Part shown: positions 34,116 through 52,837 of the stretch, in pieces
Layout of the letters: each line of letters starts with the position of its first letter
Position numbering within the stretch: position 1 is the stretch's first letter
Source of the DNA: an uncultured Chloroflexia bacterium
GTDB taxonomy: Bacteria; Chloroflexota; Limnocylindria; Limnocylindrales; CSP1-4
Direction of reading: 5' to 3'
Assembly: GCA_963707395.1 (NCBI GenBank)
Contig: CAVPPQ010000020.1
Span: forward strand, 262,021 to 326,020
Length of the DNA stretch: 64,000 nucleotides
Notes under the pieces: model-generated
Seen by the model: only the letters and a program-made list of their open reading frames with translations
Databases searched by the model: none
What the model was told of the DNA's origin: nothing
Program-made: the position numbers and the translations under genes

Positions 34116-34132
34116 CCGACCGTCGCAGGGTC

Positions 34133-37164: not shown

Positions 37165-38415
37165 ATGGCTAGACTCGGCGGTGTGATCAGCCCGACCCTG
37201 AGCGGTCGTCTCCCGGTGGAGGAGCGACCCGCCTTCAACACCCACGTCCACCTGCCGCCCAACTTCTCGGCCTTCGAGACCGTCGAGGACGCCGTGGCCA
37301 CCGCGGCCCGCGAGGGCGCCCGCGTCATCGGCTCCTCCAACTTCCACGACTTCGGTGTCTACGACCGCTTCGCCGCCGCCGCGAAGGCGCACGGCGTAGC
37401 CGCCCTCTTCGGCCTGGAGTTCATCTCCGTCCTGGCGGAGGAGCAGCGCCGTGGCGTCAAGATCAACGACCCCGCCAACCCCGGCCGCGCCTACATCTGC
37501 GGCAAGGGCATCCCGGCACCCACCGCCCCCAGCGTCCAGACCCGCCAGTTCATGGACACCGCCAAGGCCTCCAACGAGGCGCGCACGCGCCAGATGGTGG
37601 ACGTCATCGGCAGCATCTTCAGGGCAGCCGGTCTGGCGCTCGAGGTCGGCTACGAATCGATCCTGGCGGACGTGGCCGCGCGCGCCCAGGTCCCGGAGGC
37701 GTGGGTCGTGCTGCAGGAGCGCCACGTGGCCCTGGGCTTCCAGCTGGGCCTCTTCGCGCAGGTCCCGGTCGAGCGCCGCGCCGCGCTGCTCGAGAAGGTC
37801 TACGGCAAGCCCCCCACGGCCTCCCCGGACGACGCCGTCGCGACCCAGGGCGAGCTGCGCTCCCGGCTCATGAAGGCCGGCTGCCCGGCCTTCGTGGAGG
37901 AGACGCCCATCCCCTTCACGGAGGGCCTCGCCTTCGTGCTCGGCCTGGACGCCATCCCGGTGTATCCCACGCTGGCTGATGGCGTCATCCCCATCTGCGG
38001 CTTCGAGGACCCGGTGGAGGATCTCATCGAGCGCATCCTGGGCTACGGCATCCACGGCGCGGAGCTCATCCCCATCCGCAACACGCCGGCGGTCGTTGAG
38101 CGCTACATCCGCGCCTGGCGCGACGCCGGCATCTTCGCCATGGTGGGCACGGAGCACAACACCCAGGAGCGCATCCCGGTCGGCCCCACCTGCCTGCAGG
38201 GCGTGCCGCTCTCCACGGAGGTCCTGGACATCTGCTGGGAGGGCACCTGCATCGTGGCCGCCCACCAGCACCTGCGCGCCGCGGGCGAGCCCGGCTACGT
38301 CGACCGCCAGGGCGCCCTGAACCCTGGCTTCCCGGATGGCGAGTCCCGCATCCGCTATTTCGCGCAGCTCGGCGAGCACGTGCTCGTCGAGGCCATCTCG
38401 GAGGCATCTCGATGA
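37165..38415 (+). CDS. PHP-domain-like (polymerase/histidinol-phosphatase fold) protein of unknown function
   Basis: 416 aa; NTHVHLPPNFSAFETVEDAVATAAREGARVIGSSNFHDFGVYDRFAAAAKAHGVAALFGLEFI fits the PHP HxH...DH...E metal-ligand pattern. Stop overlaps the start of the aldolase/SDR fusion gene (ATGA). Confidence 0.55.
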   Translation: MARLGGVISPTLSGRLPVEERPAFNTHVHLPPNFSAFETVEDAVATAAREGARVIGSSNFHDFGVYDRFAAAAKAHGVAALFGLEFISVLAEEQRRGVKINDPANPGRAYICGKGIPAPTAPSVQTRQFMDTAKASNEARTRQMVDVIGSIFRAAGLALEVGYESILADVAARAQVPEAWVVLQERHVALGFQLGLFAQVPVERRAALLEKVYGKPPTASPDDAVATQGELRSRLMKAGCPAFVEETPIPFTEGLAFVLGLDAIPVYPTLADGVIPICGFEDPVEDLIERILGYGIHGAELIPIRNTPAVVERYIRAWRDAGIFAMVGTEHNTQERIPVGPTCLQGVPLSTEVLDICWEGTCIVAAHQHLRAAGEPGYVDRQGALNPGFPDGESRIRYFAQLGEHVLVEAISEASR

Positions 38416-40493
38416 CCGAACCCGGCCGGGAGTCCCGGCACCTGCTCGACCTCTCCGACGAGGTCATCGTCCACGCCGTCAAGATGTCGCAGCGCTTCGG
38501 GCAGGACACGGAGTACTCGCGGGGCGGCGGCGGCAACTCCTCGGTGAAGGCCGATGGCGTCGTCTACATCAAGCCCAGCGGCGTGCCCCTGGCCACCCTC
38601 AACGCGGACGACCTGGTGCCGCTTGAGATGGCGCCGCTGCTGGACCTCCTCCATGGCCGCGCCGGCGCGGACGCCGAGGCCCGCCTGGAGGGTCAGCCCG
38701 ACCCGGTCATGCGCATGGCCGCAAGGGCCCGCCTGGCCGAGGCCAAGGGCCGCCGCCCCTCCGTGGAGCTGCTCTTCCACTCGCTCCTGCCCGAGCGCTT
38801 CGTTCTGCACACGCACCCCATCGTGCCCAACAGCGTGACCTGCAACCGGGATGGTGAGTCCATCGCGGCGCGCATCTTCGGCGATGAAGCGCTGTGGGTG
38901 CCCTACACGGACCCGGGGCTGCCCCTGGCGCGCGCCATCCGCGACCTGCGGGCGGCCTTCGAGGCACGCACCGGCACGCCTGCCCCCCGCGTCACGCTCA
39001 TGGGCAACCACGGCATCATCGTCACCGGTGACACGATCGACGAGGTCGCCGACCGCTGCCAGTTCGTCATGTCCACCGTGAGCGCGGAGCTGTCGCGCAA
39101 GGGCATCCTCGTGGACGGCCTGGGCCGAGCCCCGCGGCGCGTGGCCGACGACCCGGCCGCCGCTGCCGAGCTCGTGGCCACCGTCGCCCCGACGCTGCGC
39201 GGCCTGCTGGCCGGCGAGGGGCCGCTCAAGGTCGTGACCTACGACCAGGCGGCCCGGGCCGCCGACTACCTCGAATCGGACGCCGGCAAGGCGGCCGTGA
39301 GAGGCGGACCCCTCTCGCCCGACCAGATCGTCTATGCCGGCAGCTTCCCGCTGCTCTTCGAGCCACCAGCCGATGCGCCGGCGGAGGCCATCCCGGCGCT
39401 GCTACGCGAGGATCTCGCCCAGAACGTCGCCGACCACGGCACGCCGCCCATCATCACCGTCGTGCCCGGCCTGGGCATCTTCGCCGCGGGTGACACCTCC
39501 AAGGAGGCCGACCTCGCTCGCGGCATCTACCTGGACGCCATGCGCGTCTCGCAGGGTGCCGACGCCATCGGCCAGGTCCGCGCCCTGAGCGACGCGGAGC
39601 GCGGCTTCATCGAGACGTGGGAGGTGGAAGCCTACCGGCGCAACGCCGCCGCCTTCAGCCGTGACCGCGGCCGCTTCGGGGGTCGCATCGCACTCGTCAC
39701 CGGGGCCGCCCAGGGCTTCGGCCTGGAGATCGCCCGGGGCCTCGTGGTCGCCGGCGGGCACGTCATCCTGGGCGACGTCAACGCCACGCTGGCAGCCGAG
39801 CGGGCCGCCGAGCTGGAAGCCGCCCACGGCATCGGCCGCGCCTGGTCGGTGGCCATGGACGTCACGGATGAAGCCTCCGTGACCGCCGCGGTGCGCGCGA
39901 CCCTGGAGCGCTACGGCGGCCTCGACCTGCTCGTCTCCAACGCCGGCGTGCTGCGGGCGGGCTCGGTGACGGGTCAGTCCCTGGCCGACTTCGACCTCGT
40001 CACGCAGGTCAACTACCGCGGCTACTTCCTGGCCGTGCGGGCCGTGGCGCCCATCATGGCCCGTCAGCACGACGCGCGGCCAGACGTCCTGGCCGACATC
40101 ATCGAGATCAACTCCAAGTCGGGCCTGGAGGGCTCCAAGCGCAACTTCGCCTACGCCGGCTCCAAGTTCGGGGGCATCGGCCTGACCCAGTCCTTCGCCC
40201 TCGAGCTCATCGAGGACGGCATCAAGGTCAACGCCATCTGTCCCGGCAACTACCTCGACGGGCCGCTCTGGTCGGACCCGCAGAACGGGCTCTTCAGGCA
40301 ATACCTGCGCGAAGGCAAGGTGCCCGGCGCCCAGACCATCGACGATGTCCGTCACGCGTATGAGGCCAAGGTCCCCATGGGCCGTGGCTGCACCCCGGCG
40401 GACGTGCTGGAGGCCATCTACTACCTCGTCGCCCAGCAGTACGAGACCGGGCAGGCCCTGCCGGTCACAGGAGGCCAGGTGATGCTTTCGTGA
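38412..40493 (+). CDS. bifunctional class-II aldolase (rhamnulose-1-phosphate aldolase-like) / short-chain dehydrogenase (RhaEW-type)
   Basis: 693 aa; N-terminal class II aldolase/adducin domain (...LFHSLLPERFVLHTHP...). C-terminal SDR (IALVTGAAQGFGLEIARGL...YAGSKFGG...). Confidence 0.85.
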   Translation: MTEPGRESRHLLDLSDEVIVHAVKMSQRFGQDTEYSRGGGGNSSVKADGVVYIKPSGVPLATLNADDLVPLEMAPLLDLLHGRAGADAEARLEGQPDPVMRMAARARLAEAKGRRPSVELLFHSLLPERFVLHTHPIVPNSVTCNRDGESIAARIFGDEALWVPYTDPGLPLARAIRDLRAAFEARTGTPAPRVTLMGNHGIIVTGDTIDEVADRCQFVMSTVSAELSRKGILVDGLGRAPRRVADDPAAAAELVATVAPTLRGLLAGEGPLKVVTYDQAARAADYLESDAGKAAVRGGPLSPDQIVYAGSFPLLFEPPADAPAEAIPALLREDLAQNVADHGTPPIITVVPGLGIFAAGDTSKEADLARGIYLDAMRVSQGADAIGQVRALSDAERGFIETWEVEAYRRNAAAFSRDRGRFGGRIALVTGAAQGFGLEIARGLVVAGGHVILGDVNATLAAERAAELEAAHGIGRAWSVAMDVTDEASVTAAVRATLERYGGLDLLVSNAGVLRAGSVTGQSLADFDLVTQVNYRGYFLAVRAVAPIMARQHDARPDVLADIIEINSKSGLEGSKRNFAYAGSKFGGIGLTQSFALELIEDGIKVNAICPGNYLDGPLWSDPQNGLFRQYLREGKVPGAQTIDDVRHAYEAKVPMGRGCTPADVLEAIYYLVAQQYETGQALPVTGGQVMLS

Positions 40494-42268
40494 CGACGAC
40501 CGAGCCGTCGGCGCCCCTCCCGGCCACCCAGCGCGCCATCCAGTTCGTGGCCGCGGACACCGTCATCCTCAACCCGGCCAAGGGGGTCCCGGAGCTGCGG
40601 CCCTCGCAGGTCCTGGTCAAGGTGGAGGCGGTGGGCATCTGCTTCTCCGACACGAAGCTGCTGCACGCCTTCACGGACCATCCCCGCAAGGGCGAGGTGC
40701 AGGCTGGCCTGGACCCGGAGGTCCTGGCCGAGATCCCCAGCTACGTGCCCGGCGAGCTGCCCACGGTGCCCGGCCACGAGTGCTGCGGGCGCATCGTGGC
40801 CGTCGGTTCCGCGGTGCAGCACCACCGGGTGGGCGAGCGCGTCCTCGTGCAGACCGACTACCGGCACCTGCCCACGGCCACCTCCAATGCCTCCTTCGGC
40901 TACGACTTCGAGGGCGGGCTGCAGGAGTACGTGGTCATGGACGAGCGCGTCATCATGGACCCCGACACGGGCGAGCGCTTCCTCATCCCGGTGGCAGAGG
41001 CGCCCAGCGCTTCGGCAGTCGCGCTGCTGGAGCCGTGGGCCTGCGTGGAGCGCGCCTACGCCACCGAGGAGCGTGCCGCGCTGACGGCTGGTGGCCGCCT
41101 GCTGGTCGTGGCCGACGCCGGCCACGCCATCGACGGCCTGGCCGAGCTGATCGCCGAGTCTGCCCCGCAGGCGGTGGCCGCGCTGCTGGCAGAGAGCGCG
41201 CAGCGTGAGGCCCTCGTTGCCGAGCTTGGATCCGGCCTGGCCGCTGGATCCGGGATCGGCGGCATCGTCGAGACGGCCGACCTGGCGAGCCTGCCCGCCG
41301 GTTCATTCGATGACATCGTCTACTTCGGCGCGGACGCGTCCCGCGTGGAGACGCTGCAGGCGCTGCTGGCGCCCAAGGGCGTCATCGACCTCGTCCTCGG
41401 CGGCCAGCGCCTGGGCCGACCGGTCGAAGTCGACGTGGGGCGCATCCACTACGACCTCACCCGCTGGGTCGGCACGACCGGCACACTCGCTGCCGACGGC
41501 TACGCCATGGCGCCCGGCAGCGGGGAGCTGCGCGACGGCGAGCGCGTGGGCATCATCGGGGCCGCCGGTCCGATGGGCTTCATGCACGTCATCCGCGCCC
41601 TCGCTTCTGGCCGGCCGGGGCTGGCCGTGACCGCGGTCGACATCGACGACGCACGCCTGGCCCACCTCGCGGAGGTGGCCACCCCCCTGGCCGAGGCCCG
41701 CGGCGTCTCGTTCGCCTGGCTCAACAGCCGGGTGGCGCAGCCCGATCCCGGCTTCACCCGGGTCGGCGTCATGGTGCCCTCCCCCGCCCTCGCGGCGGAG
41801 GCCGTGCAGCTCGCCGGCCAGGGCGCCATCGTCGACCTCTTCGCCGGCTTCGCCATCGGCACGCGCGCCCCGCTGGACATGGACGAGATGGTGCGCAAGG
41901 GCGTCTATCTCATCGGCACCAGCGGCTCGATGATCAGCGACATGAAGGCCGTGCTGGCCAAGCTGGAGGCGGGGGCGCTGGACACGAACATCAGCGTCGA
42001 CGCCGTCTCCGGCCTGGATGGCGTGGCCGATGCGCTGGCAGCGGTCCAGGCGCGCACCTCCGGGGGCAAGATCGTCATCTACCCGATGCTCTCAGGCGTC
42101 GGCATGCTGAAGCTGCCGGAGTTGGCCTCGAGCCTCCCGGACGTGGCCGCGGCGCTCGATCGCGGGCTCTGGACGCGCGCCGCCGAGGAAGCGCTGCTGG
42201 CGGTCGCCGGGCCGGGAGCGGGCGATGCCGCGGGCACACCAGGGGCCGGGCGGACCCAGGAGGACTGA
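40490..42268 (+). CDS. medium-chain (Zn) dehydrogenase/reductase with duplicated nucleotide-binding region (592 aa)
   Basis: GICFSDTK...GHECCGRIVAVG is a Zn-ADH catalytic domain. Two Rossmann-like segments follow (GGRLLVVADAGHAIDGL... and GERVGIIGAAGPMGFMHVIRAL...). GTG start overlaps the upstream stop. Confidence 0.7.
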   Translation: MTTTEPSAPLPATQRAIQFVAADTVILNPAKGVPELRPSQVLVKVEAVGICFSDTKLLHAFTDHPRKGEVQAGLDPEVLAEIPSYVPGELPTVPGHECCGRIVAVGSAVQHHRVGERVLVQTDYRHLPTATSNASFGYDFEGGLQEYVVMDERVIMDPDTGERFLIPVAEAPSASAVALLEPWACVERAYATEERAALTAGGRLLVVADAGHAIDGLAELIAESAPQAVAALLAESAQREALVAELGSGLAAGSGIGGIVETADLASLPAGSFDDIVYFGADASRVETLQALLAPKGVIDLVLGGQRLGRPVEVDVGRIHYDLTRWVGTTGTLAADGYAMAPGSGELRDGERVGIIGAAGPMGFMHVIRALASGRPGLAVTAVDIDDARLAHLAEVATPLAEARGVSFAWLNSRVAQPDPGFTRVGVMVPSPALAAEAVQLAGQGAIVDLFAGFAIGTRAPLDMDEMVRKGVYLIGTSGSMISDMKAVLAKLEAGALDTNISVDAVSGLDGVADALAAVQARTSGGKIVIYPMLSGVGMLKLPELASSLPDVAAALDRGLWTRAAEEALLAVAGPGAGDAAGTPGAGRTQED

Positions 42269-42269
42269 C

Positions 42270-43757
42270 ATGACCGACCGACGGGGGCTCCGCTACGTGG
42301 CGCTCGACTTCGGGGCTGAAAGTGGCCGCACGATCGTGGGTCGCTTCGACGGGGACCAGCTCTCCATCGAGCCCGTGCATCGCTACCCCAACGTCCCGGT
42401 GCGCATGGGCGGCACGCTCTACTGGGACTTCCCCCGCCAGTTCGGGGACATCCTGGGTGGGCTGGAGCGGGCCGCCGTGGACGGGCCGGTGGCCTCGGTG
42501 GCGGTGGACACCTGGGGCGTCGACTACGGCTTCATCGACGCCAGGGGGCGCCTGCTGGGCAACCCCGTCCACTACCGCGACACGCGTCACGAGAAGATGC
42601 CGGAGGTCGCCTTCGGGATCGTCCCGCGGGAGGAGGTCTACGCGGCCACGGGCATCCAGTTCATGTCCATCAACACGCTCTTCCAGCTGCTCAGCGAGGT
42701 GCAGGCGGGCGATCCCCTCCTCGACCAGGCGGACCGGCTGCTGATGATGCCGGACCTCTTCAACCACTTCCTCTGCGGCAGCGACGTGGCCGAGTACACC
42801 GAGGCCACCACGAGCCAGTGCCTGGACCCCTGGACGCGCGACTGGGCCCGTCCGCTCCTCGATCGTCTCGGCATCCCTACCGGCTTCCTGCCGGAGGTCG
42901 TACCGCCGGGCACCATCCTCGGCGAGCTGCTGCCCGACGTCGCCGGGCAGGTCGGCCTCTCCGGCACGAAGGTCGTGGCCGCGGCGGCCCACGACACCGC
43001 CTCTGCCGTGGCCGGCACGCCGCTGGCGGGCCCATCGACCGCCTACATCTCGTCCGGCACCTGGTCGCTGGTAGGCCTGGAGGTGCCTGGGCCGGTGGTG
43101 GACGAGCGCGCCCTGGCCGCCAACGTCACCAACGAGGGCGGCTACGGCGGCACCATCACGCTGCTCAAGAACGTCATGGGCCTCTGGTTCGTGCAGCAGT
43201 GCCGCAGCGCACTCTGGGCACCAGACGCAAGGCCCTCCTACGAGGAGCTCTCCGCGATGGCGGCGAGCGGGCCCACCGGCACGGCCTTCGTGGACCCCAC
43301 GGACGGCCGCTTCCTATGGCCCGGTGACATGCCCGCCCGGGTTCGAGAGTTCTGCGCGGAGACCGGGCAGCCCGTGCCCCAGGACACGCCCACCCTGCTG
43401 CGGGTCATCCTCGAATCGCTGGCCCTGCGCTATGCCGTCGTCTTCGACGAGCTGGAGGCCGTCACCGGCCAGCCCATCGACCAGATCCACATCGTCGGTG
43501 GCGGTGTCCACAACACCCTGCTCTGCCAGCTGACCGCCGACGCCAGCGGCCGGCAGGTGGTGGCCGGGCCGGTGGAGGCCACGGCCATCGGCAACATCGC
43601 CACCCAGGCCATCGCGGCAGGAGAGCTGCGGGACATCGGCCAGGCGCGCGAGCTCATCGCGCGCTCGTTCCCGACCACGACCTACGATCCGTCGGGCGAC
43701 TGGTCGCAGGCGCGGGCACGGTATGCGGTCATGCAGGCGTCGCGCTCGCAGGCCTGA
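42270..43757 (+). CDS. rhaB: rhamnulokinase (FGGY family)
   Basis: YVALDFGAESGRTIVGRFDGDQLSIEPVHRYPNVPVRMGGTLYWDF...; C-terminal ...IHIVGGGVHNTLLCQLTADASGRQVVAGPVEATAIGN is the FGGY ATP-binding region. Confidence 0.8.
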   Translation: MTDRRGLRYVALDFGAESGRTIVGRFDGDQLSIEPVHRYPNVPVRMGGTLYWDFPRQFGDILGGLERAAVDGPVASVAVDTWGVDYGFIDARGRLLGNPVHYRDTRHEKMPEVAFGIVPREEVYAATGIQFMSINTLFQLLSEVQAGDPLLDQADRLLMMPDLFNHFLCGSDVAEYTEATTSQCLDPWTRDWARPLLDRLGIPTGFLPEVVPPGTILGELLPDVAGQVGLSGTKVVAAAAHDTASAVAGTPLAGPSTAYISSGTWSLVGLEVPGPVVDERALAANVTNEGGYGGTITLLKNVMGLWFVQQCRSALWAPDARPSYEELSAMAASGPTGTAFVDPTDGRFLWPGDMPARVREFCAETGQPVPQDTPTLLRVILESLALRYAVVFDELEAVTGQPIDQIHIVGGGVHNTLLCQLTADASGRQVVAGPVEATAIGNIATQAIAAGELRDIGQARELIARSFPTTTYDPSGDWSQARARYAVMQASRSQA

Positions 43758-43826
43758 GGCGCGCGTAGACTCGAGGGGAGTGATAGCTCCCGGCCCGCGG
43801 GGCCGAGGAGGGGAAGGAGCGGTCGA

Positions 43827-44690
43827 ATGAACAAGATCGGGATCCATGCTCTGGTGTGGGCCGGCAGCTGGGGCGCCAAGGAGTGCGAGTACAGCGTCGC
43901 CAGCAGCAAGGAGGCGGGCTACGACCTGGTCGAGTTCCCCGTCTTCCAGCCGGCGGCCATGGACATCGAGGCCATCCAGCGGGCCCTCTCGGCCAACGGC
44001 ATGACGGCCACCTGCTCGATCGGCCTCTCGTTCGACAAGGACATCAACAGCGAGGACCCGGAGGTGGTGGCACGCGGTGAGGCGCTCCTCCACGACGCCC
44101 TCATGGCCGCCCGCGACCTGGGCTCGCCGTACCTCGGCGGTGTCATCTTCAGCGCTCTCGGGCCCTACTCATCCATGCCCACGGAGCGCAGCCGACGCAA
44201 CTCCATCGACGCCATCCGCCGTCTCGCGGAGAAGGCCGCGCCGCTGGACATCACCCTGGGCCTGGAGTTCGTGAATCGCTACGAATCCAACCTTCTCAAC
44301 ACGACCGCCCAGACGCTCGACTTCATCGAGGAGGTCGGCCTGCCCAACGTGGTCGTGCACGCCGACTCGTACCACATGAACATCGAGGAGAACGACTTCC
44401 GCTCGCCCATCGTGGCCGGTGGCGACAAGATCGGCTACGTCCACATCGGCGAGAACCACCGCGGCTACCTGGGCTCCGGGCACATCGACTTCCCGCAGCT
44501 CTTCGGGGCGCTCGTGGAGATCGGCTACGAGGGTGTCATCACCTTCGAGTCCTTCTCTTCGGCGGTCGTGGACGAGGATCTCTCCACCATCCTGCGCATC
44601 TGGCGCAACGTCTGGAGCGACGGCATGGATCTCGCCAAGCAGGCCCGCGGCTTCATCCGCGAGCAGATGGCGGCCGCCACACAGGGCTGA
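43827..44690 (+). CDS. xylose-isomerase-like TIM-barrel protein, ketose 3-epimerase (D-tagatose/D-psicose epimerase) family
   Basis: GIHALVWAGSWGAKECEYSVASSKEAGYDLVE... and LEFVNRYESNLLNTTAQTLDFIEEVGLPNVVVHADSYHMNIEE match the DTE/DPE family block for block (metal ligands E/D/H/E). Confidence 0.75.
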   Translation: MNKIGIHALVWAGSWGAKECEYSVASSKEAGYDLVEFPVFQPAAMDIEAIQRALSANGMTATCSIGLSFDKDINSEDPEVVARGEALLHDALMAARDLGSPYLGGVIFSALGPYSSMPTERSRRNSIDAIRRLAEKAAPLDITLGLEFVNRYESNLLNTTAQTLDFIEEVGLPNVVVHADSYHMNIEENDFRSPIVAGGDKIGYVHIGENHRGYLGSGHIDFPQLFGALVEIGYEGVITFESFSSAVVDEDLSTILRIWRNVWSDGMDLAKQARGFIREQMAAATQG

Positions 44691-44700
44691 CGGGCCGGGG

Positions 44701-46086
44701 TCAGCTGTTGGCCCCGACGCGCCATCGCTCCACGTAGCGAACCAAGCCGTCTCGATAGGCGCCCTCCGGTGACGGATGCGGGCTGTGGTCCAAGAGGGGC
44801 CGCGCACTATCGGCGGCCAGCAGCGCTGCGCCGATCGACGTGCCGGTAGCCGAGCCGACCGACGACATCACCGGCCTGCCACTCGCCGCGGCGACGAGAT
44901 CGAGGAACAGCGTGTTCCTGGCGAATGGCCCCTCGGTCAGGATCGGACCTTCAGCACCGGTCAGCTCGAGACACGTCAGGGCCATCATCGCCAGATAGAG
45001 CGAGGCGACTGCCGTCCGCTCACCATCGCTCAGCTCGAGTGCCGGCACCGACCAGGTGGATCGTCGCCCCTGGAACGGGCCGGACGTTGAGACGACGGCG
45101 GGGCTGAGCGTCACGCACTGGTCCAGGACGGCCGTGATATCAGCCCTGGTCGGGGTCACCGGCGCGCCGGAGGTGAGCATCTCGAACTCGCGGCCGCCCA
45201 TGAAGCGGGCCGATGGCACCGGGTCACCGAAGGCGTTCACGTTCATCAGCGTGTCTCGCGCCGGGTCGAGCGGCCGCGGCGTTCCGCCGATGGCCATGGT
45301 GATCACCCATGTCCCGGTCGAGATGACGGAGAACGGCGCGCTTCGCCCCATCAGGTGCGGGTAGAGCGAGGCGTTGCTGTCGTGGATGCCACAGGTGACC
45401 GGCGTGGACTGCGGCAGACCCGTTGCCTGTGCCACATCAGGCAAGAGGTTTCCGACGAGGTCCCACGCCTTGCGGATCGGCGGGAACCTGCCATCCAGGC
45501 CGAGCTTATCGACCAGGTCAGAGAAGTTGCGTTCTCGCGGCAGCCACAGGTCGGTGTGGCATCCCAACGATGCGACCTCCGTGCACCACGTGCCCGTGAG
45601 GCGGCCCACCCAGTACTGGGGATAGGTGACCACGTTGGCGATACGAGCGCGTAGCTCCGGACGGGTGCTGAGCAGCCAGTGCAGCTGCGCCCCCAGGTTG
45701 AAGCCGTGCGGCAGACGAGGGGACCCGCTCTTCGCGAAGCTGGGGCGAAGCGAGTCGTATTCGTCGGCCAGATCGTCTGGCCCGTCGTGCTCGTAGTCGA
45801 GCAGCGGAAGGACCGGCGTTCCCTCCTCATCAAGGAGCATCGCCGCCGCGCCGTGGGTCGTCGCGGTGATGGCGTCCACCCCGTGTCGGACCTGGAACCT
45901 GCTCAAGGCGTCGATGAGGAAGCGCCAGAGGGCCTCGGTGTCGTGATGCGGGAAGGGGTCATCGCGGAGAACGGCGTTCGGTGTCTCGCGCACGTCGATC
46001 TCGCGCAGATCCAGCAGGTCCACCAGGGCGACCTTCGCATGGGTCTTGCCGATGTCGATGACCGCCACGTTCCGGGCTCGGGTCAT
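44701..46086 (-). CDS. FGGY-family carbohydrate kinase (second kinase of locus)
   Basis: 461 aa; VAVIDIGKTHAKVALV..., ...GIHDSNASL...VISTGTWVI..., C-terminal ...GSATGTSIGAALLA. Confidence 0.75.
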   Translation of the reverse strand: MTRARNVAVIDIGKTHAKVALVDLLDLREIDVRETPNAVLRDDPFPHHDTEALWRFLIDALSRFQVRHGVDAITATTHGAAAMLLDEEGTPVLPLLDYEHDGPDDLADEYDSLRPSFAKSGSPRLPHGFNLGAQLHWLLSTRPELRARIANVVTYPQYWVGRLTGTWCTEVASLGCHTDLWLPRERNFSDLVDKLGLDGRFPPIRKAWDLVGNLLPDVAQATGLPQSTPVTCGIHDSNASLYPHLMGRSAPFSVISTGTWVITMAIGGTPRPLDPARDTLMNVNAFGDPVPSARFMGGREFEMLTSGAPVTPTRADITAVLDQCVTLSPAVVSTSGPFQGRRSTWSVPALELSDGERTAVASLYLAMMALTCLELTGAEGPILTEGPFARNTLFLDLVAAASGRPVMSSVGSATGTSIGAALLAADSARPLLDHSPHPSPEGAYRDGLVRYVERWRVGANS

Positions 46087-46116
46087 GGCCGATGGATCCT
46101 GGTCCGCGGGTCCGTC

Positions 46117-47127
46117 TCAGTCACCTTCGATCCGGAGGGTCTCGACCAGGGTCCGGATGTTCGCGATCGGGATGTCCGGCGGCAACCGGTGGGTTGGCCC
46201 GGCGATGTACCCACCGGACGCTCCCAGGAGCGCCACCGTGTCTTCGATCTTCTTCCGAAGCACCTCGGGCGGATCGAACGGCAGGTCGCGCTGCGTGCTG
46301 ATGCCACCCCAGAAGGTCAACCGATCCCCGAACTCGGCCTTCAGCCTCCTGAGGTCGTAGATCTCCGGCTGGACCGTCTGATAGATGTCCAGGCCGATGT
46401 CGATGAACTCCGGCAGGAGGTCGGTGATGTTGCCGCAGGAGTGCAGCGCGACGATCTTGCCCCTCGACTTGACCCGCGAGAACATCGTGGCCCAGCCTTC
46501 CTTGAAGAACGTGCGCCACATCCGCGGGCTCATCAGCAACCCGTTCTGCTGACCGTAGTCGTCGCCGAAGTAGAAGCCGTCGATCCCGGAGTCGATGACC
46601 GAGTCGATGATCTTCAGGTTGTAGCTGAGCACCTTGGCGAGGATCTCCTTCACGAAGTCCTCGTCTGCCGCCAGGTACATGAGCATGTTCTGGAACCCAC
46701 ACAGGCTCCACGCTCGCTCGAAGTAGGTCGTGCCGATCTTCCCGAACAGCACCGCGTCACCACGAGTGGCGAGAGCGCGATCGACCGACCGCACCATCTC
46801 GTCCAGGTCGGGCTCCGGGAAGACGTACGAGTCGTCGTGGGGGCTCACGAGCTCGGCGGTCGGGATGCCGATGTCCTTGTCATCCCCGGTGCGGTCCCAC
46901 TCCACCCCGAACTCGTCCGTGAAGTAGCCCTCGCGTTCCGACCTGCCGCCGATGTTGAAGCCCACCTTCTGGCAGTGGTTGCCCAGGTACGCCTCGAACT
47001 CCGCAGGGTCCATCGCGTAGGCAGCGCAGGTCTTCGCCAGCTGAGCGCTGGTGAACTCGATGGCGTAGGGAACCCGATCCGGCTGGCTGTGCCCGATCGC
47101 TGTCAGCGTGCGCTCTCGTCGTGACAT
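46117..47127 (-). CDS. uroporphyrinogen-decarboxylase (URO-D/MtaA-like) family protein
   Basis: MSRRERTLTAIGHSQPDRVPYAIEFTSAQLAKT... and ...IVALHSCGNITDLLPEFIDIGLDIY... resemble the URO-D/methyltransferase MtaA family fold. Confidence 0.65.
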   Translation of the reverse strand: MSRRERTLTAIGHSQPDRVPYAIEFTSAQLAKTCAAYAMDPAEFEAYLGNHCQKVGFNIGGRSEREGYFTDEFGVEWDRTGDDKDIGIPTAELVSPHDDSYVFPEPDLDEMVRSVDRALATRGDAVLFGKIGTTYFERAWSLCGFQNMLMYLAADEDFVKEILAKVLSYNLKIIDSVIDSGIDGFYFGDDYGQQNGLLMSPRMWRTFFKEGWATMFSRVKSRGKIVALHSCGNITDLLPEFIDIGLDIYQTVQPEIYDLRRLKAEFGDRLTFWGGISTQRDLPFDPPEVLRKKIEDTVALLGASGGYIAGPTHRLPPDIPIANIRTLVETLRIEGD

Positions 47128-47304
47128 GGGACTCCTTGCGATGCGCGCAGCCTGGCCGGATCCCGGCCCAGGCTCAAGAAGGGGTTCTGCCGCCGTCGCC
47201 GAGCGATGCGCCATGAACGAAGAAGCCGGGGCGCCACGTGGGCACCCCGGCGCTGGTGGCTCGGTCAGGCCCGGTCCTGGATGGACCGAGCATGGACCCC
47301 CAGA

Positions 47305-48423
47305 CTAGAAGTCGAAGTCGTTGATGTTGTCAGGGCCGTAGATGAAGGGTGGGCCAAGCAGCACTTCGCTGCCGTTCACGACCTGGAGGTCGCCGAGGCG
47401 GCCCGCCGCGACACTGGTGTCACCGGGCTTGAAGGTGCCATCCACGACGGCACGCATGACGTAGGTGGCGGCATAGCCGAGGTCCACCGGGTTCCACAGC
47501 ACGACCGACTTGACGCAACCGTCCTGGACGTACGGCTTCATCGCGTTGGGGGTGGCCAGGCCGATGACCGAGACCTTGCCGCAGGCCTCTGCCTGGGTCA
47601 CGGCATCAGCGGCGGCCGGGGTGGCCACGCTGGTCATGCCGAAGATGCCCTGGATGCCATCGCCGTACTTGTTGAGGAGCGTCTGGGCCTGGCTGAAGGA
47701 CAGCGGGCCGTCCTCCTGGGCCTCAAGCGTCTCCAGCCACTTCAGGTTGGGGTAGCACTTCATGGCATAGGCTTCCATCTCGGCGATCCAGCGCGCCTGG
47801 TTCGGCGTGGTGAACGTGCTGGTCACGATGCCGAAGGCAGCGGAGTCGCCCTGCTCGGCGACGAGGCTGTCGATCATGGCCTTGCCGATGCCGTTGAACT
47901 CGGCCTGGTTGACGAACCACTCGCGTGCCTCAGGCACGGAGTTGGCGTCGTAGCCGACGACATGGATGCCGGCCTCAAGGGCCTTGGTCAGGACCGGGCC
48001 GATGGCCACCGGATCGTTGGCGGCGAAGAGGACGCCGTCCACACCCTGGGTGATGTAGTTGTCGATGAAGGTGATCTGCTCATCGATGTTGGCGTTCGTG
48101 GGACCGTCGTTGATGACTTCCACGTTGCCTAGCTCAGCAGCAGCTTCCTGCATGCCCTTGGCGGTGGCATTGAAGTAGCCGATGCCGATGAGCTTGGGGA
48201 TGTCGACGACGGTGATCGGCTGGCCGGCCTTGTCAGGCGGGTTGACAGCCATGCCACCGTTGAAGTCCATGGCCGCCGGCGCGGGCGCCGCCTCGTCAGG
48301 CGTGCACGGCAGCGGGTTGGTCGGCAGGTCGTCGCCGCCGGCCCAGCGGTCCTGGGCTGCGACGCTGGCGAACGAGCCGAACGTCAGGCCGATGACCGCG
48401 GTCAGGGTGATGATCTTGCGCAT
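47305..48423 (-). CDS. sugar ABC transporter substrate-binding protein (RbsB/RhaS-like periplasmic binding protein)
   Basis: Signal peptide MRKIITLTAVIGLTFGSFASVAA; ...ITVVDIPKLIGIGYFNATAKGMQEAAAELG... is a type I PBP fold; RBS GGAG upstream of the 48423 start. Confidence 0.85.
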   Translation of the reverse strand: MRKIITLTAVIGLTFGSFASVAAQDRWAGGDDLPTNPLPCTPDEAAPAPAAMDFNGGMAVNPPDKAGQPITVVDIPKLIGIGYFNATAKGMQEAAAELGNVEVINDGPTNANIDEQITFIDNYITQGVDGVLFAANDPVAIGPVLTKALEAGIHVVGYDANSVPEAREWFVNQAEFNGIGKAMIDSLVAEQGDSAAFGIVTSTFTTPNQARWIAEMEAYAMKCYPNLKWLETLEAQEDGPLSFSQAQTLLNKYGDGIQGIFGMTSVATPAAADAVTQAEACGKVSVIGLATPNAMKPYVQDGCVKSVVLWNPVDLGYAATYVMRAVVDGTFKPGDTSVAAGRLGDLQVVNGSEVLLGPPFIYGPDNINDFDF

Positions 48424-48536
48424 CTTGACAGTCCATCTCCTCATGTGGTCGAACTGGACATTGCGTGCCGGTCCAACGGGGACCGACGGATCCGATGGGA
48501 CTCCCGAGTCACCTCCTCTCGACGGGCATGGTAGCC

Positions 48537-49568
48537 CTAGCGTGCTCCGGGGAGAAGCCGTTTCAGCCTCGCCGGCGGGTTCTGGATGAACTGGTTGAGG
48601 AGCACGGCGCCGATGAGGATGACACCCACGACGATGGTCGTCGAGTCACCCTTGGCGCCGGACAGCGCCAAGCCGTTCTTCATGAGCTGGATGAGCGCCA
48701 GGCCCAGCACGGTGCCCAGGATCGTGCCGCTGCCGCCGAAGATGCTGGTGCCACCCACGACCACGGCGGTGATGGCAGTGAGCTCGATGCCGTTGCCGAA
48801 GTCCGAGCGGGTGGTGCTCACGCGCGAGACGTAGACCCACGCCGCCACACCGGACATGAACCCGGACAGCGTGTAGATGATGAGCTTGTTGCGCTGCACG
48901 GGAAGGCCGCTGAAGCGCGCCCCCGTCTCGTTGTTGCCGATGGCGTACAGGGAGCGGCCAAAGGGCGTCCAGGCCAGGGCGGCGCCGATGGCGATGACCG
49001 CCAGGACCACGATGAGGAGCTGGTTCGGGATGCTCGTCAGGTCGCCCAGGAAGTCCTTCTGGCCCAGGATGTAGAACCACTCCGGGTAGCCGCGCACGGA
49101 TCGCGCCTGCGCGATGCCCTCCGCGAGTCCGCGGAAGAGCGCCAGCGTGGCCAGGGTGGTGATGAGCGGCGGCAGGCCGACCCTCGTGATGAAGAGGCCG
49201 TTGAAGAGGCCGCAGGCGGTGCCGATGAGCAGGGCCACGACGATGGCCAGCTCGAGGGGCAGGCCCCAGTTGTACCAGGCCACCCCGAGCATGATGGACG
49301 CCAGCCCCATGATGGAGCCGACGGACAGGTCGATGCCGCCCGTGATGATGATGAGCGTCATGGGCAGGGCGATGAGCGCGACCTCGCCTGCCAGGCGACT
49401 CTGATTGAGAAGGTTCTCCGGGGTCAGGAAGACGTCCGACTGCAGCGAGAGCAGCAGTACGCCGGCGACCAGGAGGATGAAGAGGATCGATTCCTGGCGC
49501 AGCAGGATGCGCTGCAGGCGGCTGGGCTCTGAGGAGCTGGGCTGGGTAGCGGGGTTCACGGTCGTCAT
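48537..49568 (-). CDS. sugar ABC transporter permease (RbsC/AraH family)
   Basis: Polytopic membrane protein; ...LSVGSIMGLASIMLGV..., typical branched-chain/ribose-type permease. Confidence 0.8.
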   Translation of the reverse strand: MTTVNPATQPSSSEPSRLQRILLRQESILFILLVAGVLLLSLQSDVFLTPENLLNQSRLAGEVALIALPMTLIIITGGIDLSVGSIMGLASIMLGVAWYNWGLPLELAIVVALLIGTACGLFNGLFITRVGLPPLITTLATLALFRGLAEGIAQARSVRGYPEWFYILGQKDFLGDLTSIPNQLLIVVLAVIAIGAALAWTPFGRSLYAIGNNETGARFSGLPVQRNKLIIYTLSGFMSGVAAWVYVSRVSTTRSDFGNGIELTAITAVVVGGTSIFGGSGTILGTVLGLALIQLMKNGLALSGAKGDSTTIVVGVILIGAVLLNQFIQNPPARLKRLLPGAR

Positions 49569-49578
49569 CTCGGCCTGC

Positions 49579-50610
49579 CTACTGCCGTTCCTGGCGCCGG
49601 CGGCGCACGACATCGGAGAGCACGGTCACCAGGATCAGGATGCCCAGGATGGCCTTCACCCAGAAGGGCGAGATGTTCACGAAGACCAGCGCCGAGCCGA
49701 TGAAGCGGATGAGGATGGCCGCCAACGTGGAGCCGATGACCGTGCCCACGCCGCCCAGGATGGAGACACCGCCCACCACGGAGGCCGTGATGACCTGCAG
49801 TTCCAGGCCCGGGGTCACGACCGCCTGGATGGTCTGGAACTGCGTCGCGTACATGACGCTGGCGATGCCCGCGAAGACGCCGCTCAGGATGAACGTGGTC
49901 ATCAGGATGCGCCGCGTGTCCAGGCCGGAGAGACGGGCTGCCTCCGCGTTGCCACCGACCGCGTATTGGGAGCGGCCGGTCCGGCTGTAGCGCATCCACA
50001 GGAAGGCCACGGCAGTCAGGACGATCATGATCCAGACCGGGATCGGGATGCCCAGGAAGGACTCCATGGCGAAGCTGTAGCCCTCGGGCAAGTCGTAGAG
50101 CGTGTTGCCTCCCGCTACGAGGATGAGGCCACCCTTGAGGATGCTGAACATGCCCAGCGTGACGACGATGGCAGGGATCTTCAGGTAGGCCACGAAGAAG
50201 CCGTTGATGGCGCCGATGAGCATGCCGCCGAAGATGGGTACGATCCAGGCCGCCACGTTCACGAGGGGCAGCGGCAAGCCCGCGTCGCGCAAGCCGAGCG
50301 CCACGTAGCCGGAGAGCGTCACCAGCACGCCGATGGCGGCGCCCACGGAGATGTCGATGTTGCCGGTGATGATGATCATCGACATGCCGATGGCGGCCAC
50401 GGCGATGTAGGCGTTGACGTTGAAGAGGTCGCTGACGTTGTTCCAGGCCAGGAACTGGTTGTTGTACAGCCCCACGCCGAAGAAGAGACCCACCAGCAGG
50501 ATGAGCAGCAGGCCCTCCTGGGTGCCCAGCGCCCGACGGACGAAGCCCAGGAGCTGGCGGCCCTGGGACGTGCGTTGCGAGGTGGGCTGGGCTGGAGCTG
50601 CCGCGCTCAT
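49579..50610 (-). CDS. sugar ABC transporter permease (RbsC/AraH family), second
   Basis: 343 aa paralog of the upstream permease; overlaps neighbours by 4 nt (operon). Confidence 0.8.
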   Translation of the reverse strand: MSAAAPAQPTSQRTSQGRQLLGFVRRALGTQEGLLLILLVGLFFGVGLYNNQFLAWNNVSDLFNVNAYIAVAAIGMSMIIITGNIDISVGAAIGVLVTLSGYVALGLRDAGLPLPLVNVAAWIVPIFGGMLIGAINGFFVAYLKIPAIVVTLGMFSILKGGLILVAGGNTLYDLPEGYSFAMESFLGIPIPVWIMIVLTAVAFLWMRYSRTGRSQYAVGGNAEAARLSGLDTRRILMTTFILSGVFAGIASVMYATQFQTIQAVVTPGLELQVITASVVGGVSILGGVGTVIGSTLAAILIRFIGSALVFVNISPFWVKAILGILILVTVLSDVVRRRRQERQ

Positions 50611-52157
50611 GCGGCCGCTCCGGCCACCGGATCCGCAGGCGGCGTGTCCGGGAGGATGACCTGGTCGCTCATCATGGCCGCACCGACGTTGTGCTGGTCG
50701 GCGTCCGCCCGATCGAACTCCGCCACCAGGCGACCCTGGCGCATGACCAGGACGCGGTCGCTCATGCCCAGCACCTCCGGCAGCTCGCTGGAGATCATGA
50801 GGATGCCCAGGCCCTGCTGGGCCAGCTCGCTCATGAGCCGGTGGATCTCCGCCTTGGCACCCACGTCAACGCCGCGGGTGGGCTCGTCCACGATGAGCAG
50901 CTTGGGCTTGCTGGCCAGCCACTTGCCCACGACGACCTTCTGCTGGTTGCCGCCGGAGAGCTTGTTGACGACCTGCTCCCCGCTCGTGGCGATGATGTTG
51001 AGCTGGGCGATCATGTCGTTCCCGACGCGGCGCTCGGCGGACTTGTCCACCATGCCCACGCGGGTCAGCGAGCCCAGGATGGCCATCGAGATGTTCTCGC
51101 GGATGCGCATCTCCCTGACCAGCCCCTGGCTGCCGCGATCCTCTGGCACGTAGGCGATGCCCAGCTTCATGGCCTGACCCGGTGAGCGGATGTCCACCTT
51201 CTGGCCCTCGATGAGGATCTCGCCCGAGTCGGGGGCCAGGATGCCGAAGACGAGCTGCGCCGTCTCGCTGCGACCGGAGCCCACGAGGCCCGCCATGCCC
51301 ACGATCTCGCCACCGCGGACCGTGAAGCTGACGTCCTGCGTGGTCGGCTTGCGCGTCAGGTTGCGGACCTCCAGCACGTCACCGCGGACCTCCGTGGGGA
51401 GCTTGGGGAAGAGCTCCGTGATGGTCCGACCGACCATCATGCGGATGAGCTCGCCCTCGCTCACCTCAGCCACGGGCTTCGAGCCGACGAAGTGCCCGTC
51501 GCGCAGGACGGTGACCCGATCGGCCAGCTGGAAGACCTCCTGCAGGCGGTGGCTGATGTAGATGACGGCCACGCCGCGCTCCTTGAGCAGGCGCACGATC
51601 TCGAAGAGGCGCTCGACGTCCGATTCGGTGAGCGCGGCCGTAGGCTCGTCCATGATGAGCACTCGGGCGTTGATGGAGAGGGCCTTGGCGATCTCGACGC
51701 GCTGACGGTTGCCCACGTTCAACGTGCCGACCTTGCGCTGGACGTCCATGTCCTGGATGTTGAGCGAGGCCAGGATCTCGCGGGCGCGGTCGTTCATGGC
51801 ACCCCAGTCCACGACGCCGATGCGGCCGACCTCGCGCCGGGGGGCATGGCCCATGAAGATGTTCTCCGCCACGGACAGCTCCGGGTAGAGGCTCAGCTCC
51901 TGGTACATCGTGGCCACGCCAGCCGCCTGTGCCTCATGCGGGCTGCCGAAGGCGACTTCCTGGCCCTCCATGCGAATGACGCCCGCGTCCGGTTGGTGGA
52001 CGCCGGAGATGACCTTGATGAGCGTGGACTTGCCGGCACCGTTCTCACCCACCAGGGCATGGATCTCGCCAGCCGCCACCGTGAATGAGACGTCCTCCAG
52101 GGCGCGGACACCCGGGAACTGCTTGCTGATGCCCTCGAGTTCAAGCAGCGCGGTCAT
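50607..52157 (-). CDS. sugar ABC transporter ATP-binding protein (duplicated NBD, RbsA/RhaT-like)
   Basis: 516 aa; two Walker A motifs (GENGAGKST... and GLVGSGRSE), LSGGNQQKV signature. Confidence 0.9.
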   Translation of the reverse strand: MTALLELEGISKQFPGVRALEDVSFTVAAGEIHALVGENGAGKSTLIKVISGVHQPDAGVIRMEGQEVAFGSPHEAQAAGVATMYQELSLYPELSVAENIFMGHAPRREVGRIGVVDWGAMNDRAREILASLNIQDMDVQRKVGTLNVGNRQRVEIAKALSINARVLIMDEPTAALTESDVERLFEIVRLLKERGVAVIYISHRLQEVFQLADRVTVLRDGHFVGSKPVAEVSEGELIRMMVGRTITELFPKLPTEVRGDVLEVRNLTRKPTTQDVSFTVRGGEIVGMAGLVGSGRSETAQLVFGILAPDSGEILIEGQKVDIRSPGQAMKLGIAYVPEDRGSQGLVREMRIRENISMAILGSLTRVGMVDKSAERRVGNDMIAQLNIIATSGEQVVNKLSGGNQQKVVVGKWLASKPKLLIVDEPTRGVDVGAKAEIHRLMSELAQQGLGILMISSELPEVLGMSDRVLVMRQGRLVAEFDRADADQHNVGAAMMSDQVILPDTPPADPVAGAAA

Positions 52158-52398: not shown

Positions 52399-52837
52399 CT
52401 CCGGGCGGACAGGCGCGACCGACGGGGACCATCGACCGGGCCAGCGGCGCTCCCGCCCTCCGAGCCTGGATGGGGTCCCTGGGTGGCCTGCGCGTCTCGC
52501 CCAGTCATTCGCCGGAGGATAGCCGAGCGCCGGACCGCGCGAGAGGGGGTCAGGCGGCCCGAGCTGGCGGGTCGCACGCTCCCAACCTCGCCCCTGGGCG
52601 ATGCCCCAAACCGTGACCCGGTGGAGCGATGTGGCGCTACCGAGGCCCGGGGGACGCCTTCCGCGTCCCGCTGGATGCCGATGCCGGCCACGATGACTGC
52701 CTCGGCGCCTGATGGACGAGACGCGCCGCGACGTGTCAGGGTCGCGGAGGCTATCCTGCGCTGCGAACGGAGAGCGGTCCTCGGCTCGTCGAACGGACGA
52801 CGGGGCCGACCGTCTCGCCTGCCGCCCGGAGGAGCCC

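Follow-up and report, generated by a model that had tools for sequence, protein, structure and literature searches.

Introduction

The catabolism of L-rhamnose is considered to be well mapped. The phosphorylated pathway that uses the fused aldolase and dehydrogenase RhaEW is found in Chloroflexus aurantiacus and Bacillus subtilis, and canonical RhaEW loci continue to pyruvate via LutABC (Rodionova et al. 2013, PMC3870299). An annotated canonical example is the plasmid locus of Deinococcus deserti, which contains RhaS-ABC, RhaM, DeoR, RhaI, RhaEW, RhaB and LutABC. Here we analyze a stretch of 64,000 nucleotides (the window, 64 kb) from an uncultured Chloroflexia bacterium of the Limnocylindrales (GenBank assembly GCA_963707395.1, contig CAVPPQ010000020.1, positions 262,021 to 326,020), which carries at positions 37165-52157 a sugar utilization locus of 11 genes. 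Three of these genes, coding for a PHP-fold protein, a fusion of a class II aldolase with a short-chain dehydrogenase/reductase (SDR), and a long zinc-dependent medium-chain dehydrogenase/reductase (MDR), are referred to below as the triad. The comparative study of rhamnose regulons described RhaEW, and did not describe the genes that accompany the fusion in this triad (PMC3870299).

The window locus is similar to the canonical RhaEW pathway in its RhaS-family ATP-binding cassette (ABC) importer, in an FGGY-family kinase that is 49% identical to that of D. deserti, and in an aldolase-SDR fusion with the same domain order and active-site motifs. Its relatives in other genomes also have DeoR, RhaI and RhaM, and the route is likewise extended towards pyruvate. 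However, the fusion is only 27-30% identical to its D. deserti counterpart and scores below all family cutoffs, and it comes with a PHP-fold protein and a long MDR that are absent from canonical loci. A complex resembling pyruvate dehydrogenase (PDH) occupies the place of LutABC or LldD, and the window itself has a ketose 3-epimerase and a divergent binding protein instead of RhaI, RhaM and RhaS, with no regulator. We propose, with a probability of roughly 0.5, that a rhamnose-type catabolic system, widespread and undescribed, is present here in a lineage-specific variant. Full-text literature searches (PHP with rhamnose, URO-D with rhamnulokinase, aldolase/SDR, 3-epimerase clusters, and sorbose-1-P reductase) retrieved no description of the module.

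Results

The triad is a conserved core across phyla

Relatives of the PHP-fold protein were found in 534 of 185,579 species' genomes in a scan of one genome per species, from which 80 loci were fetched. An independent metagenome scan, centred on the long MDR, supplied a second set of 80 loci, many of them on contigs that end early. Among the one-per-species loci with enough sequence, 66 of 73 have the fusion as the next gene after PHP, and 58 of 61 have the MDR gene no more than 5 kb downstream of PHP; the exceptions to this adjacency come mostly from Armatimonadota. The metagenome set contained the fusion in at least 52/80 loci and the PHP gene in at least 35/80. At least six phyla are represented among the fetched loci, and carriers of the triad belong to Chloroflexota, Actinomycetota, Acidimicrobiia, Planctomycetota, Fibrobacteria and Acidobacteriota. 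The fetched carriers are without exception metagenome-assembled genomes, whose nearest named lineages are Propionibacteriales/Propionicimonas, Acidimicrobiales and Phycisphaerae. PHP relatives occur in Armatimonadota as well, and the closest ones belong to uncultured soil Chloroflexota ("Limnocylindrales").

Clustering of the neighboring genes in the genome set revealed a recurrent company of sugar genes: DeoR in 34 loci, a second, polyol-type MDR (denoted ADH336) in 18/80, RhaI in 17, RhaM in 11 and a RhaD-like aldolase in 7. A RhaB-like kinase was located near the triad in 36 loci by clustering and in 39/80 by tblastn, and sugar ABC importers were also recurrent. The RhaI proteins of the related triad loci score above the family cutoff (TIGR02635, 565 bits; cutoff 531), and one called locus comprises DeoR, ABC, RhaM, RhaB, RhaI, RhaD, PHP, fusion, MDR and ADH genes. 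RhaA and RhaT accompany PHP-like and long-MDR genes in low-GC bacteria. The PHP, fusion and MDR genes therefore form a conserved core that is usually found among bona fide rhamnose genes. An initial annotation of the window had regarded the PHP and MDR genes as additions to a RhaEW chassis, and had suggested genome-context comparison as a check, with sporadic conservation of the extra genes speaking against its proposal. The extra genes are indeed conserved rather than sporadic; however, the PHP and MDR genes are not additions, as the triad is itself the conserved element, residing elsewhere mostly in complete L-rhamnose loci with RhaI, RhaM, a RhaS-like ABC importer and DeoR.

Some triad loci have no rha genes. 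In one of them (L089), the triad is accompanied by genes for a GFO_IDH_MocA oxidoreductase, a 2-hydroxyacid dehydrogenase and a DUF6807 protein, and in others the triad forms compact units with genes of the PDH-like complex (see below). Such loci, along with the ADH336 genes and the occurrence of Mannitol_dh domains and genes as fusion partners and neighbors, favor an explanation by which the triad is not a deoxy-sugar system and serves a rare ketose or polyol (an L-ketohexose, L-xylulose or L-ribulose, or a hexitol), its link to rha genes arising from intermediates or regulation in common. On this view, the operon in the window would serve the use of a rare ketose or polyol, consistent with a binding protein that is far from RhaS and an epimerase whose relatives act, as judged by the names of their PDB entries, on non-deoxy ketoses. 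This explanation does not account well for the frequent RhaB-like kinases next to the triad (39/80 genome loci), for the RhaI, RhaM and RhaS-like importers, or RhaA, RhaM and RhaT, that accompany it in distant phyla, or for a window kinase that is as near to canonical rhamnulokinase (49%) as the kinases of RhaI-containing loci. We consider it unlikely, and favor a rhamnose-type system with a modified entry.

The front end of the locus was exchanged in the window's clade

In the close relatives of the window (L002-L020) the gene order is PHP, fusion, MDR, (DeoR), RhaB, epimerase, and none of them has RhaI or RhaM. In somewhat more distant relatives a DeoR gene is located between those for the MDR and RhaB, and the innermost subclade, to which the window belongs, is devoid of it; the missing regulator of this subclade is therefore a recent loss. 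Searching the entire window by tblastn with representative proteins yielded no RhaI, RhaM, RhaD, DeoR or LacI, and no E2 or E3 of the PDH-like complex; the window also has no homologue of RhaA, and Pfam detected no sugar regulator among its other genes. The absence of L-rhamnose isomerase, mutarotase and a DeoR/LacI regulator, first noted for the locus, thus extends to the full 64 kb. Among the components of a canonical rhamnose locus, the window lacks the isomerase (RhaA/RhaI), RhaM together with the regulator, and a rhamnose-specific transporter.

The kinase, by comparison, was retained. It scores 432 bits against the rhamnulokinase model (TIGR02627, cutoff 528), and its 49% identity to the rhamnulokinase-family gene of the D. 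deserti locus is in the same range as that of the kinases in RhaI-containing triad loci (44-52% across all loci compared). By these similarities it is probably a rhamnulokinase or a close relative of one. The ATPase of the importer is 55% identical to that of the D. deserti locus. The binding protein (TIGR02637 RhaS, 239 bits; cutoff 342) is a divergent member of the RhaS/LsrB family: the binding proteins of the window and of a close relative (L009) are 30-32% identical to D. deserti RhaS, as opposed to 46-57% for those of RhaI-containing triad loci.

The TIM-barrel protein encoded next to RhaB matches solved ketose 3-epimerases over its full length, with 290 bits to 8YEB and to 5ZFS (D-allulose 3-epimerase of Arthrobacter globiformis) and 263 bits to 3VYL (L-ribulose 3-epimerase of Mesorhizobium loti), in line with its original designation. 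Such close homology to characterized enzymes of the same fold and length indicates a genuine relative of ketose 3-epimerases and not an L-rhamnose isomerase, an identity that would have spoken against the initial proposal. The protein is below the cutoff of the NCBIfam D-psicose 3-epimerase model (NF051856, 179 bits; cutoff 300), and it differs from 5ZFS and 3VYL in being encoded beside RhaB in a defined catabolic operon, which may point to a physiological role. In the genome set, the epimerase was present in the close relatives only, all of which lack RhaI and RhaM.

Since the binding protein has diverged (30-32% versus 46-57%), RhaB has stayed constant, and RhaI and RhaM are absent from the subclade, we conclude that the front end (RhaI, RhaM and the RhaS-type binding protein) was exchanged as a set for the epimerase and a divergent binding protein, with RhaB and the triad kept. 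This exchange is the best evidence on the substrate, and points to the uptake of a sugar other than L-rhamnose, which would join the route as a ketose by way of the 3-epimerase; it also fits the earlier idea of a different substrate processed on a rhamnose-type chassis, with RhaB kept at ~49%.

The same data bear on an alternative, an ordinary L-rhamnose operon whose isomerase, mutarotase and regulator genes would lie in some other part of the genome, and in which PHP, MDR, the uroporphyrinogen decarboxylase (URO-D)-like protein, the second kinase and the epimerase are passengers. The closest matches are after all RhaB-like, RhaS-like and RhaEW-like, and our inspection covers 64 kb of the genome. 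However, the translationally coupled PHP, fusion and MDR genes are adjacent in 58/61 to 66/73 species across phyla, URO-D genes recur with distant PHP and long-MDR genes in unrelated bacteria, an entire subclade has the epimerase in place of RhaI/RhaM at the locus, and the binding protein is well outside the identity range seen in RhaI-containing loci. The alternative is therefore strongly disfavored, and we regard it as highly improbable.

The fusion protein represents a separate subfamily

The fusion had been described as RhaEW-type. Its architecture and motifs agree with this description: an Aldolase_II domain is joined to an SDR domain, and the metal-binding and catalytic motifs (GGGNSS, PSVE, HTHP and NHG, as well as TGxxxGxG and YxxxK) are kept as in canonical RhaEW. 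Its family scores do not, as it reaches 309 bits against TIGR02632 (cutoff 568) and stays below the cutoffs of all ten PRK08324 subfamily models. The D. deserti comparison shows the same, with RhaB and the ATPase encoded in the neighborhood being 49-55% identical to their counterparts and the fusion only 27-30%. Because of this low identity to a validated-type RhaEW, the fusion is best classified as a separate subfamily and not as an ordinary RhaEW. For the SDR half, the closest match is sorbitol-6-phosphate dehydrogenase (5O3Z, 180 bits; NF009050, 230 bits).

A different subfamily annotated as "bifunctional aldolase/short-chain dehydrogenase" was seen on plasmid p42a of Rhizobium etli (L173, 30219-32267). 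It is accompanied there by genes for an FGGY kinase, a SorC-type regulator, an iron alcohol dehydrogenase and an SDR, and the locus contains no rhamnose genes. The aldolase/SDR architecture clearly serves several different sugar pathways.

The PHP-fold protein belongs to an unannotated family

The first protein of the triad has the (beta/alpha)7 barrel of the PHP fold, and is a PHP-fold metalloenzyme of a family for which Pfam and NCBIfam hold no model. The Pfam PHP model (PF02811) does not match the window protein and matches a few homologues weakly, below its cutoff, and a sequence search of the PDB with the family profile gave no match. An alternative GTG start at 37216 would give a protein of 399 aa, the usual length of the homologues, and is probably the one used.

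Each of the seven strands bears conserved residues at its C-terminal end (H27, H29, E85, D272, E330, H331 and H367), together with several conserved Arg and Lys residues, a pattern that suggests an intact metal site for an anionic substrate. Several of the canonical PHP ligands appear to be replaced (N33, Y110, Y267), and H61 is a Tyr in distant members, both according to motif reading rather than structural superposition. The protein shares the N-terminal HxH, the strand-3 Glu and the last-strand His with the TrpH/YciV-type PHP phosphoesterases, such as BAD_1165 (3O0F), RNase AM (9ETK) and the pAp phosphatase Cv1693. It differs from them in its low identity (~15%), a larger insert, the absence of a Pfam match, the apparent replacement of several canonical His/Asp ligands as read from the motifs, and a context of sugar catabolism and not of RNA or nucleotide metabolism. 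Many loci contain both the PHP gene and a bona fide RhaI, and a function of PHP as a replacement of RhaI was rejected for this reason.

Natural fusions of the PHP domain exist both with Aldolase_II and with Mannitol_dh. Two such metagenome proteins, P0122 and P0161 (loci L084 and L083), consist respectively of a mannitol-dehydrogenase-family domain with a PHP-like domain (886 aa), and of a PHP-like domain with a class II aldolase domain lacking the SDR (842 aa); their genomic contexts were uninformative.

In a metagenome-assembled genome (MAG) of Armatimonadota (L076:9297-10595), a PHP homologue with 47% identity is part of an operon of the order trpE, DUF1963, trpG, trpD, trpC, PHP, trpF. This context echoes the historical name "trpH" of the E. 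coli PHP protein, and demonstrates that, in at least one phylum, the family also occurs outside sugar loci.

The long MDR dehydrogenase and the PDH-like genes

The long MDR has a Cys/His/Glu zinc site, and its residues C51, H96, E97, E181 and C185 and the nucleotide-binding motif GAAGPMG are invariant. The region of about residues 190-345 is an insertion that forms an additional Rossmann-like domain; a structure model of moderate quality (predicted local distance difference test score of 67) shows two Rossmann-like domains, and its Foldseek matches are generic alcohol dehydrogenases. Orthologues in bacteria of ~51% GC are 48% identical over the full length. Many homologues carry the Joint Genome Institute (JGI) label "L-sorbose 1-phosphate reductase", a name assigned automatically from weak similarity; the match to E. 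coli YggP covers the C-terminal half of the protein (26% identity over half its length), and no SorE-type match was found in NCBIfam.

A stand-alone SDR, a long MDR (30% identical, of the same length class), an FGGY kinase and a GntR regulator are encoded together on plasmid p380k of the cultured Deinococcus sp. AJ005 (L174, 314515-319269). The trio adjoins a sugar ABC importer and genes for mannose-6-phosphate isomerase, an AGE epimerase and a ROK kinase, with no aldolase, and this strain may offer a tractable system for the long MDR family.

Directly beyond the importer genes of the window lies a pair of E1 alpha and E1 beta genes of the PDH type, which the initial annotation had left outside the locus. 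Genes for E1/E2/E3 adjoin the triad in 17/80 genome loci and in about 20/80 metagenome loci across phyla (E1, E2 and E3 in 17, 11 and 7 loci, respectively, by clustering of the genome set), and share operons with it in Actinomycetota, Acidimicrobiia and Planctomycetota. The PDH-like complex is thus part of the conserved neighborhood, and the window E1 pair is a probable member of the triad system. Both subunits fall below the PDH family cutoffs (E1 alpha, 349 bits versus 394; E1 beta, 276 versus 321). In the metagenome set a compact unit recurs in which E1 beta, E1 alpha and DeoR are divergent from E2, E3, PHP, fusion and MDR; one such unit is followed by a mannitol-dehydrogenase-family gene.

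These features may suggest a second explanation of the triad chemistry, involving a carbonyl shift and a thiamine-dependent cleavage. By analogy with SorE (L-sorbose-1-phosphate reductase, an MDR) and SorD (glucitol-6-phosphate dehydrogenase, an SDR), the long MDR would reduce a ketose 1-phosphate at C2, and the SDR domain would re-oxidize the resulting alditol phosphate at its far end, producing a 1-deoxy-ketose 6-phosphate, an acetoin-like methyl ketone that E1/E2/E3 could cleave into acetyl-CoA and tetrose 4-phosphate. In place of a simple aldol cleavage, the aldolase-like domain and PHP would then perform an epimerization, a dehydration or a reaction on the phosphate. An MDR and a SrlD-like SDR downstream of a step that forms a ketose 1-phosphate are indeed common to both systems, and the JGI labels and YggP match, the proximity of the SDR domain to sorbitol-6-phosphate dehydrogenase, and the Deinococcus trio without an aldolase all point in this direction. 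So do the presence of E1/E2/E3 in the same operons with scores below the PDH cutoffs, the separate RhaD-like aldolase that coexists with the triad in some loci, and the PHP-aldolase fusion, which parallels the MtnB-MtnC fusion of dehydratase and phosphatase in methionine salvage.

However, the explanation is built by analogy, and the similarity of the long MDR to SorE and YggP is weak. With its inserted domain of Rossmann-like fold, the window MDR is ~150-180 aa longer, the SDR is part of a fusion with a class II aldolase domain, no phosphotransferase system is present, and the name "sorbose-1-P reductase" is an automatic one without a SorE-type NCBIfam match behind it. Furthermore, the aldolase domain retains all the motifs it has in common with canonical RhaEW, no specific reaction of PHP is predicted, and the tetrose phosphate would need further isomerases, none of which was seen. 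We consider such a carbonyl shift somewhat less probable than the already unlikely rare-ketose or polyol explanation, and continue to favor cleavage in the manner of a rhamnose-type system.

The URO-D-like protein and the second kinase

The minus-strand block includes a URO-D-like protein, which is a clear member of PF01208 (gathering score 23.9) and is far below the cutoffs of both HemE (19.9; cutoff 303) and MtaA (50.9; cutoff 400). The residues H228, C230 and H312 are invariant and form an HxC...H motif. The PF01208 match is shared with the MtaA/CmuA methyltransferases and with uroporphyrinogen decarboxylase (4AY7), and the HxC motif, with a third conserved ligand position ~82 residues further on, resembles the zinc site of MtaA. 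Unlike MtaA, the window protein has His rather than Cys as the third ligand, no corrinoid protein is encoded nearby, and the context is sugar catabolism.

A first screen of the 80 genome loci found a URO-D gene in 6 and the second FGGY kinase in 1. Homologues ~50% identical to the URO-D-like protein were then found in unrelated bacteria of ~51-54% GC, with RhaB-like, PHP-like, long-MDR, RhaM, RhaA and RhaT genes as neighbors, in clusters that read URO-D, FGGY, (FGGY), PHP-like, long MDR (48% identical to that of the window), RhaM, second URO-D, RhaA, RhaT. This recurrence led us to reject the notion that the URO-D gene is an accidental neighbor. The second kinase is closest to the uncharacterized FGGY kinase 3H6E (254 bits), and in the genome set it occurs together with the URO-D gene only in the window and in L007. 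The URO-D gene is therefore a recurrent member of these loci, and the 3H6E-like kinase a sporadic one.

Two further contexts of URO-D-fold proteins were observed. In L013 and L020 (Chloroflexota, ~17.2-18.2 kb), a URO-D paralogue 30% identical to that of the window follows RhaB at the place where other relatives have the epimerase, which hints that the two are alternative front-end enzymes. A Treponema MAG contig (L087) carries another sugar cluster built around URO-D-fold proteins: a GH2 glycosidase gene is followed by a pair of URO-D-family genes in alternation with two MDR genes and with those for an AP_endonuc_2 barrel and a ribulose-phosphate 3-epimerase.

Organization of the locus

Gene calling based on the GC content of third codon positions, combined with Pfam and NCBIfam scans, recovered all 11 genes of the initial inventory at their coordinates, in two convergent blocks of five plus-strand and six minus-strand genes (Table 1).

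Table 1. Coordinates of the locus and of the adjacent E1 genes within the window.
Feature	Position	Strand	Remarks
PHP-fold protein, 416 aa	37165-38415	+	no Pfam or NCBIfam match; gene 1 of the conserved triad
Class II aldolase and SDR fusion	38412-40493	+	Aldolase_II, adh_short
Long Zn-dependent MDR dehydrogenase, 592 aa	40490-42268	+	ADH_N as sole match
RhaB-like FGGY ketose kinase	42270-43757	+	best match rhamnulokinase
Ketose 3-epimerase, TIM barrel	43827-44690	+	AP_endonuc_2
Second FGGY kinase	44701-46086	-	FGGY_C_2, PF21546 213 bits
URO-D/MtaA-fold protein, 336 aa	46117-47127	-	PF01208 78.1 bits
GC-rich stem-loop with T-rich tail	47225-47251	-	terminator-like, 11 pairs, 10 G-C
Periplasmic sugar-binding protein	47305-48444	-	Peripla_BP_4
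Two ABC permeases	48537-49613 and 49579-50610	-	BPD_transp_2
Double-cassette ABC ATPase	50607-52157	-	two ABC_tran domains
PDH-like E1 alpha	52712-53800	+	E1_dh/Transket_pyr/Transketolase_C set of the E1 pair
PDH-like E1 beta	53739-54797	+	E1_dh/Transket_pyr/Transketolase_C set of the E1 pair

Overlapping stop and start codons had been reported at three junctions of the plus-strand block. Two of these are true 4-nt overlaps, namely ATGA at 38412 between PHP and fusion and GTGA at 40490 between fusion and MDR, the latter making GTG the start codon of the MDR gene; the reading of these junctions indicates that the PHP, fusion and MDR genes are translationally coupled. At the third, the RhaB ATG at 42270 begins 1 nt past the MDR stop codon, preceded by a GGAGGA Shine-Dalgarno sequence, so that the two genes are adjacent with no overlap.

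The GC content of the window is ~70%. Across 44000-52000, the region of the minus-strand block, it drops to 0.65-0.67 as compared to 0.70-0.73 around it, consistent with the importer, URO-D and kinase genes having been acquired separately and more recently. The stem-loop of this block, situated just downstream of the binding-protein gene and before the URO-D gene, could be a terminator or an mRNA stabilizer, and would uncouple expression of the binding protein from that of the URO-D and kinase genes. The two promoter regions share no motif of at least 11 nt, no sigma-70-like promoters were found at the locus, and Rfam gave no credible match there. Directly upstream of the PHP gene lies a phosphoenolpyruvate carboxylase gene, preceded by genes for an SDR and major facilitator superfamily transporters (window 33932-36910; L001-L020; 17/80 loci), an arrangement that looks like lineage synteny and not a functional link.

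Discussion

Based on the gene content, folds, family assignments and conserved neighborhoods described above, we infer a substrate, an order of steps, and reactions for the PHP, long-MDR, URO-D-like and second-kinase proteins. In most genomes, the triad core would receive L-rhamnulose 1-phosphate through a RhaS-type ABC importer or RhaT, RhaM, RhaI or RhaA, and RhaB. In the window, the divergent RhaS/LsrB-family importer would take up a sugar other than L-rhamnose, the likeliest candidate being a ketose or deoxy-ketose, such as L-rhamnulose epimerized at C3, or a derivative on which the URO-D/FGGY pair acts. The ketose 3-epimerase would convert this sugar to the RhaB substrate, RhaB would form the ketose 1-phosphate, and the triad would cleave and oxidize it to dihydroxyacetone phosphate (DHAP) and a three-carbon unit ending as pyruvate. 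The PDH-like E1, with E2 and E3 encoded elsewhere, would then produce acetyl-CoA. The flow towards pyruvate is proposed by analogy with canonical RhaEW loci, which are extended via LutABC.

Several observations weigh against this scheme. Conversion of L-rhamnulose 1-phosphate to DHAP and L-lactate by the fusion is an assumption made from its domains; owing to the 27-30% identity to validated-type RhaEW and to scores well below every NCBIfam cutoff, its role as aldolase and lactaldehyde dehydrogenase has to be assumed. Seven relatives have a separate RhaD-like aldolase next to the triad, which would be redundant if the fusion were a plain aldolase. A role of the triad in converting the three-carbon unit to pyruvate leaves PHP without an obvious job, and Zn-dependent MDRs are not known to act as lactate dehydrogenases. 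The compact units of triad and E1/E2/E3 have no kinase, isomerase or transporter within 10 kb, tblastn detected no E2 or E3 in the 64-kb window, and Armatimonadota homologues of PHP that are 45-49% identical to it are found in unrelated contexts, including the trp operon.

There is also a real, if unproven, chance that the pathway itself is new. The triad and the PDH-like complex would then constitute an undescribed route for 6-deoxy-ketohexose 1-phosphates, in which PHP and URO-D folds perform new sugar chemistry and which is fed through the 3-epimerase in the clade of the window. In one form of this route, a carbonyl transposition of the SorE/SorD kind would be followed by an acetoin-dehydrogenase-like cleavage to acetyl-CoA and a tetrose phosphate. 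We view such a route as a tentative possibility, well behind the variant rhamnose-type system that we prefer.

The module described here exposes a gap in a well-studied pathway, comprising 3-7 genes without assigned reactions. Like the PHP family, the long MDR and the URO-D-like Zn proteins carry no annotation other than their folds. Solving the functions of the PHP, long-MDR and URO-D-like proteins would provide new reaction types for three large superfamilies, and would also allow thousands of genes now labeled "bifunctional aldolase/short-chain dehydrogenase" to be re-annotated correctly. The ketose 3-epimerase family is known mainly from rare-sugar biotechnology, and the position of the window epimerase in a defined catabolic operon suggests a natural role for these enzymes; if a new route is indeed fed through it, this would be the first defined physiological role for the family. 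The substrate suggested by the locus is a rare or deoxy ketose present in soil and used by abundant uncultured Chloroflexota.

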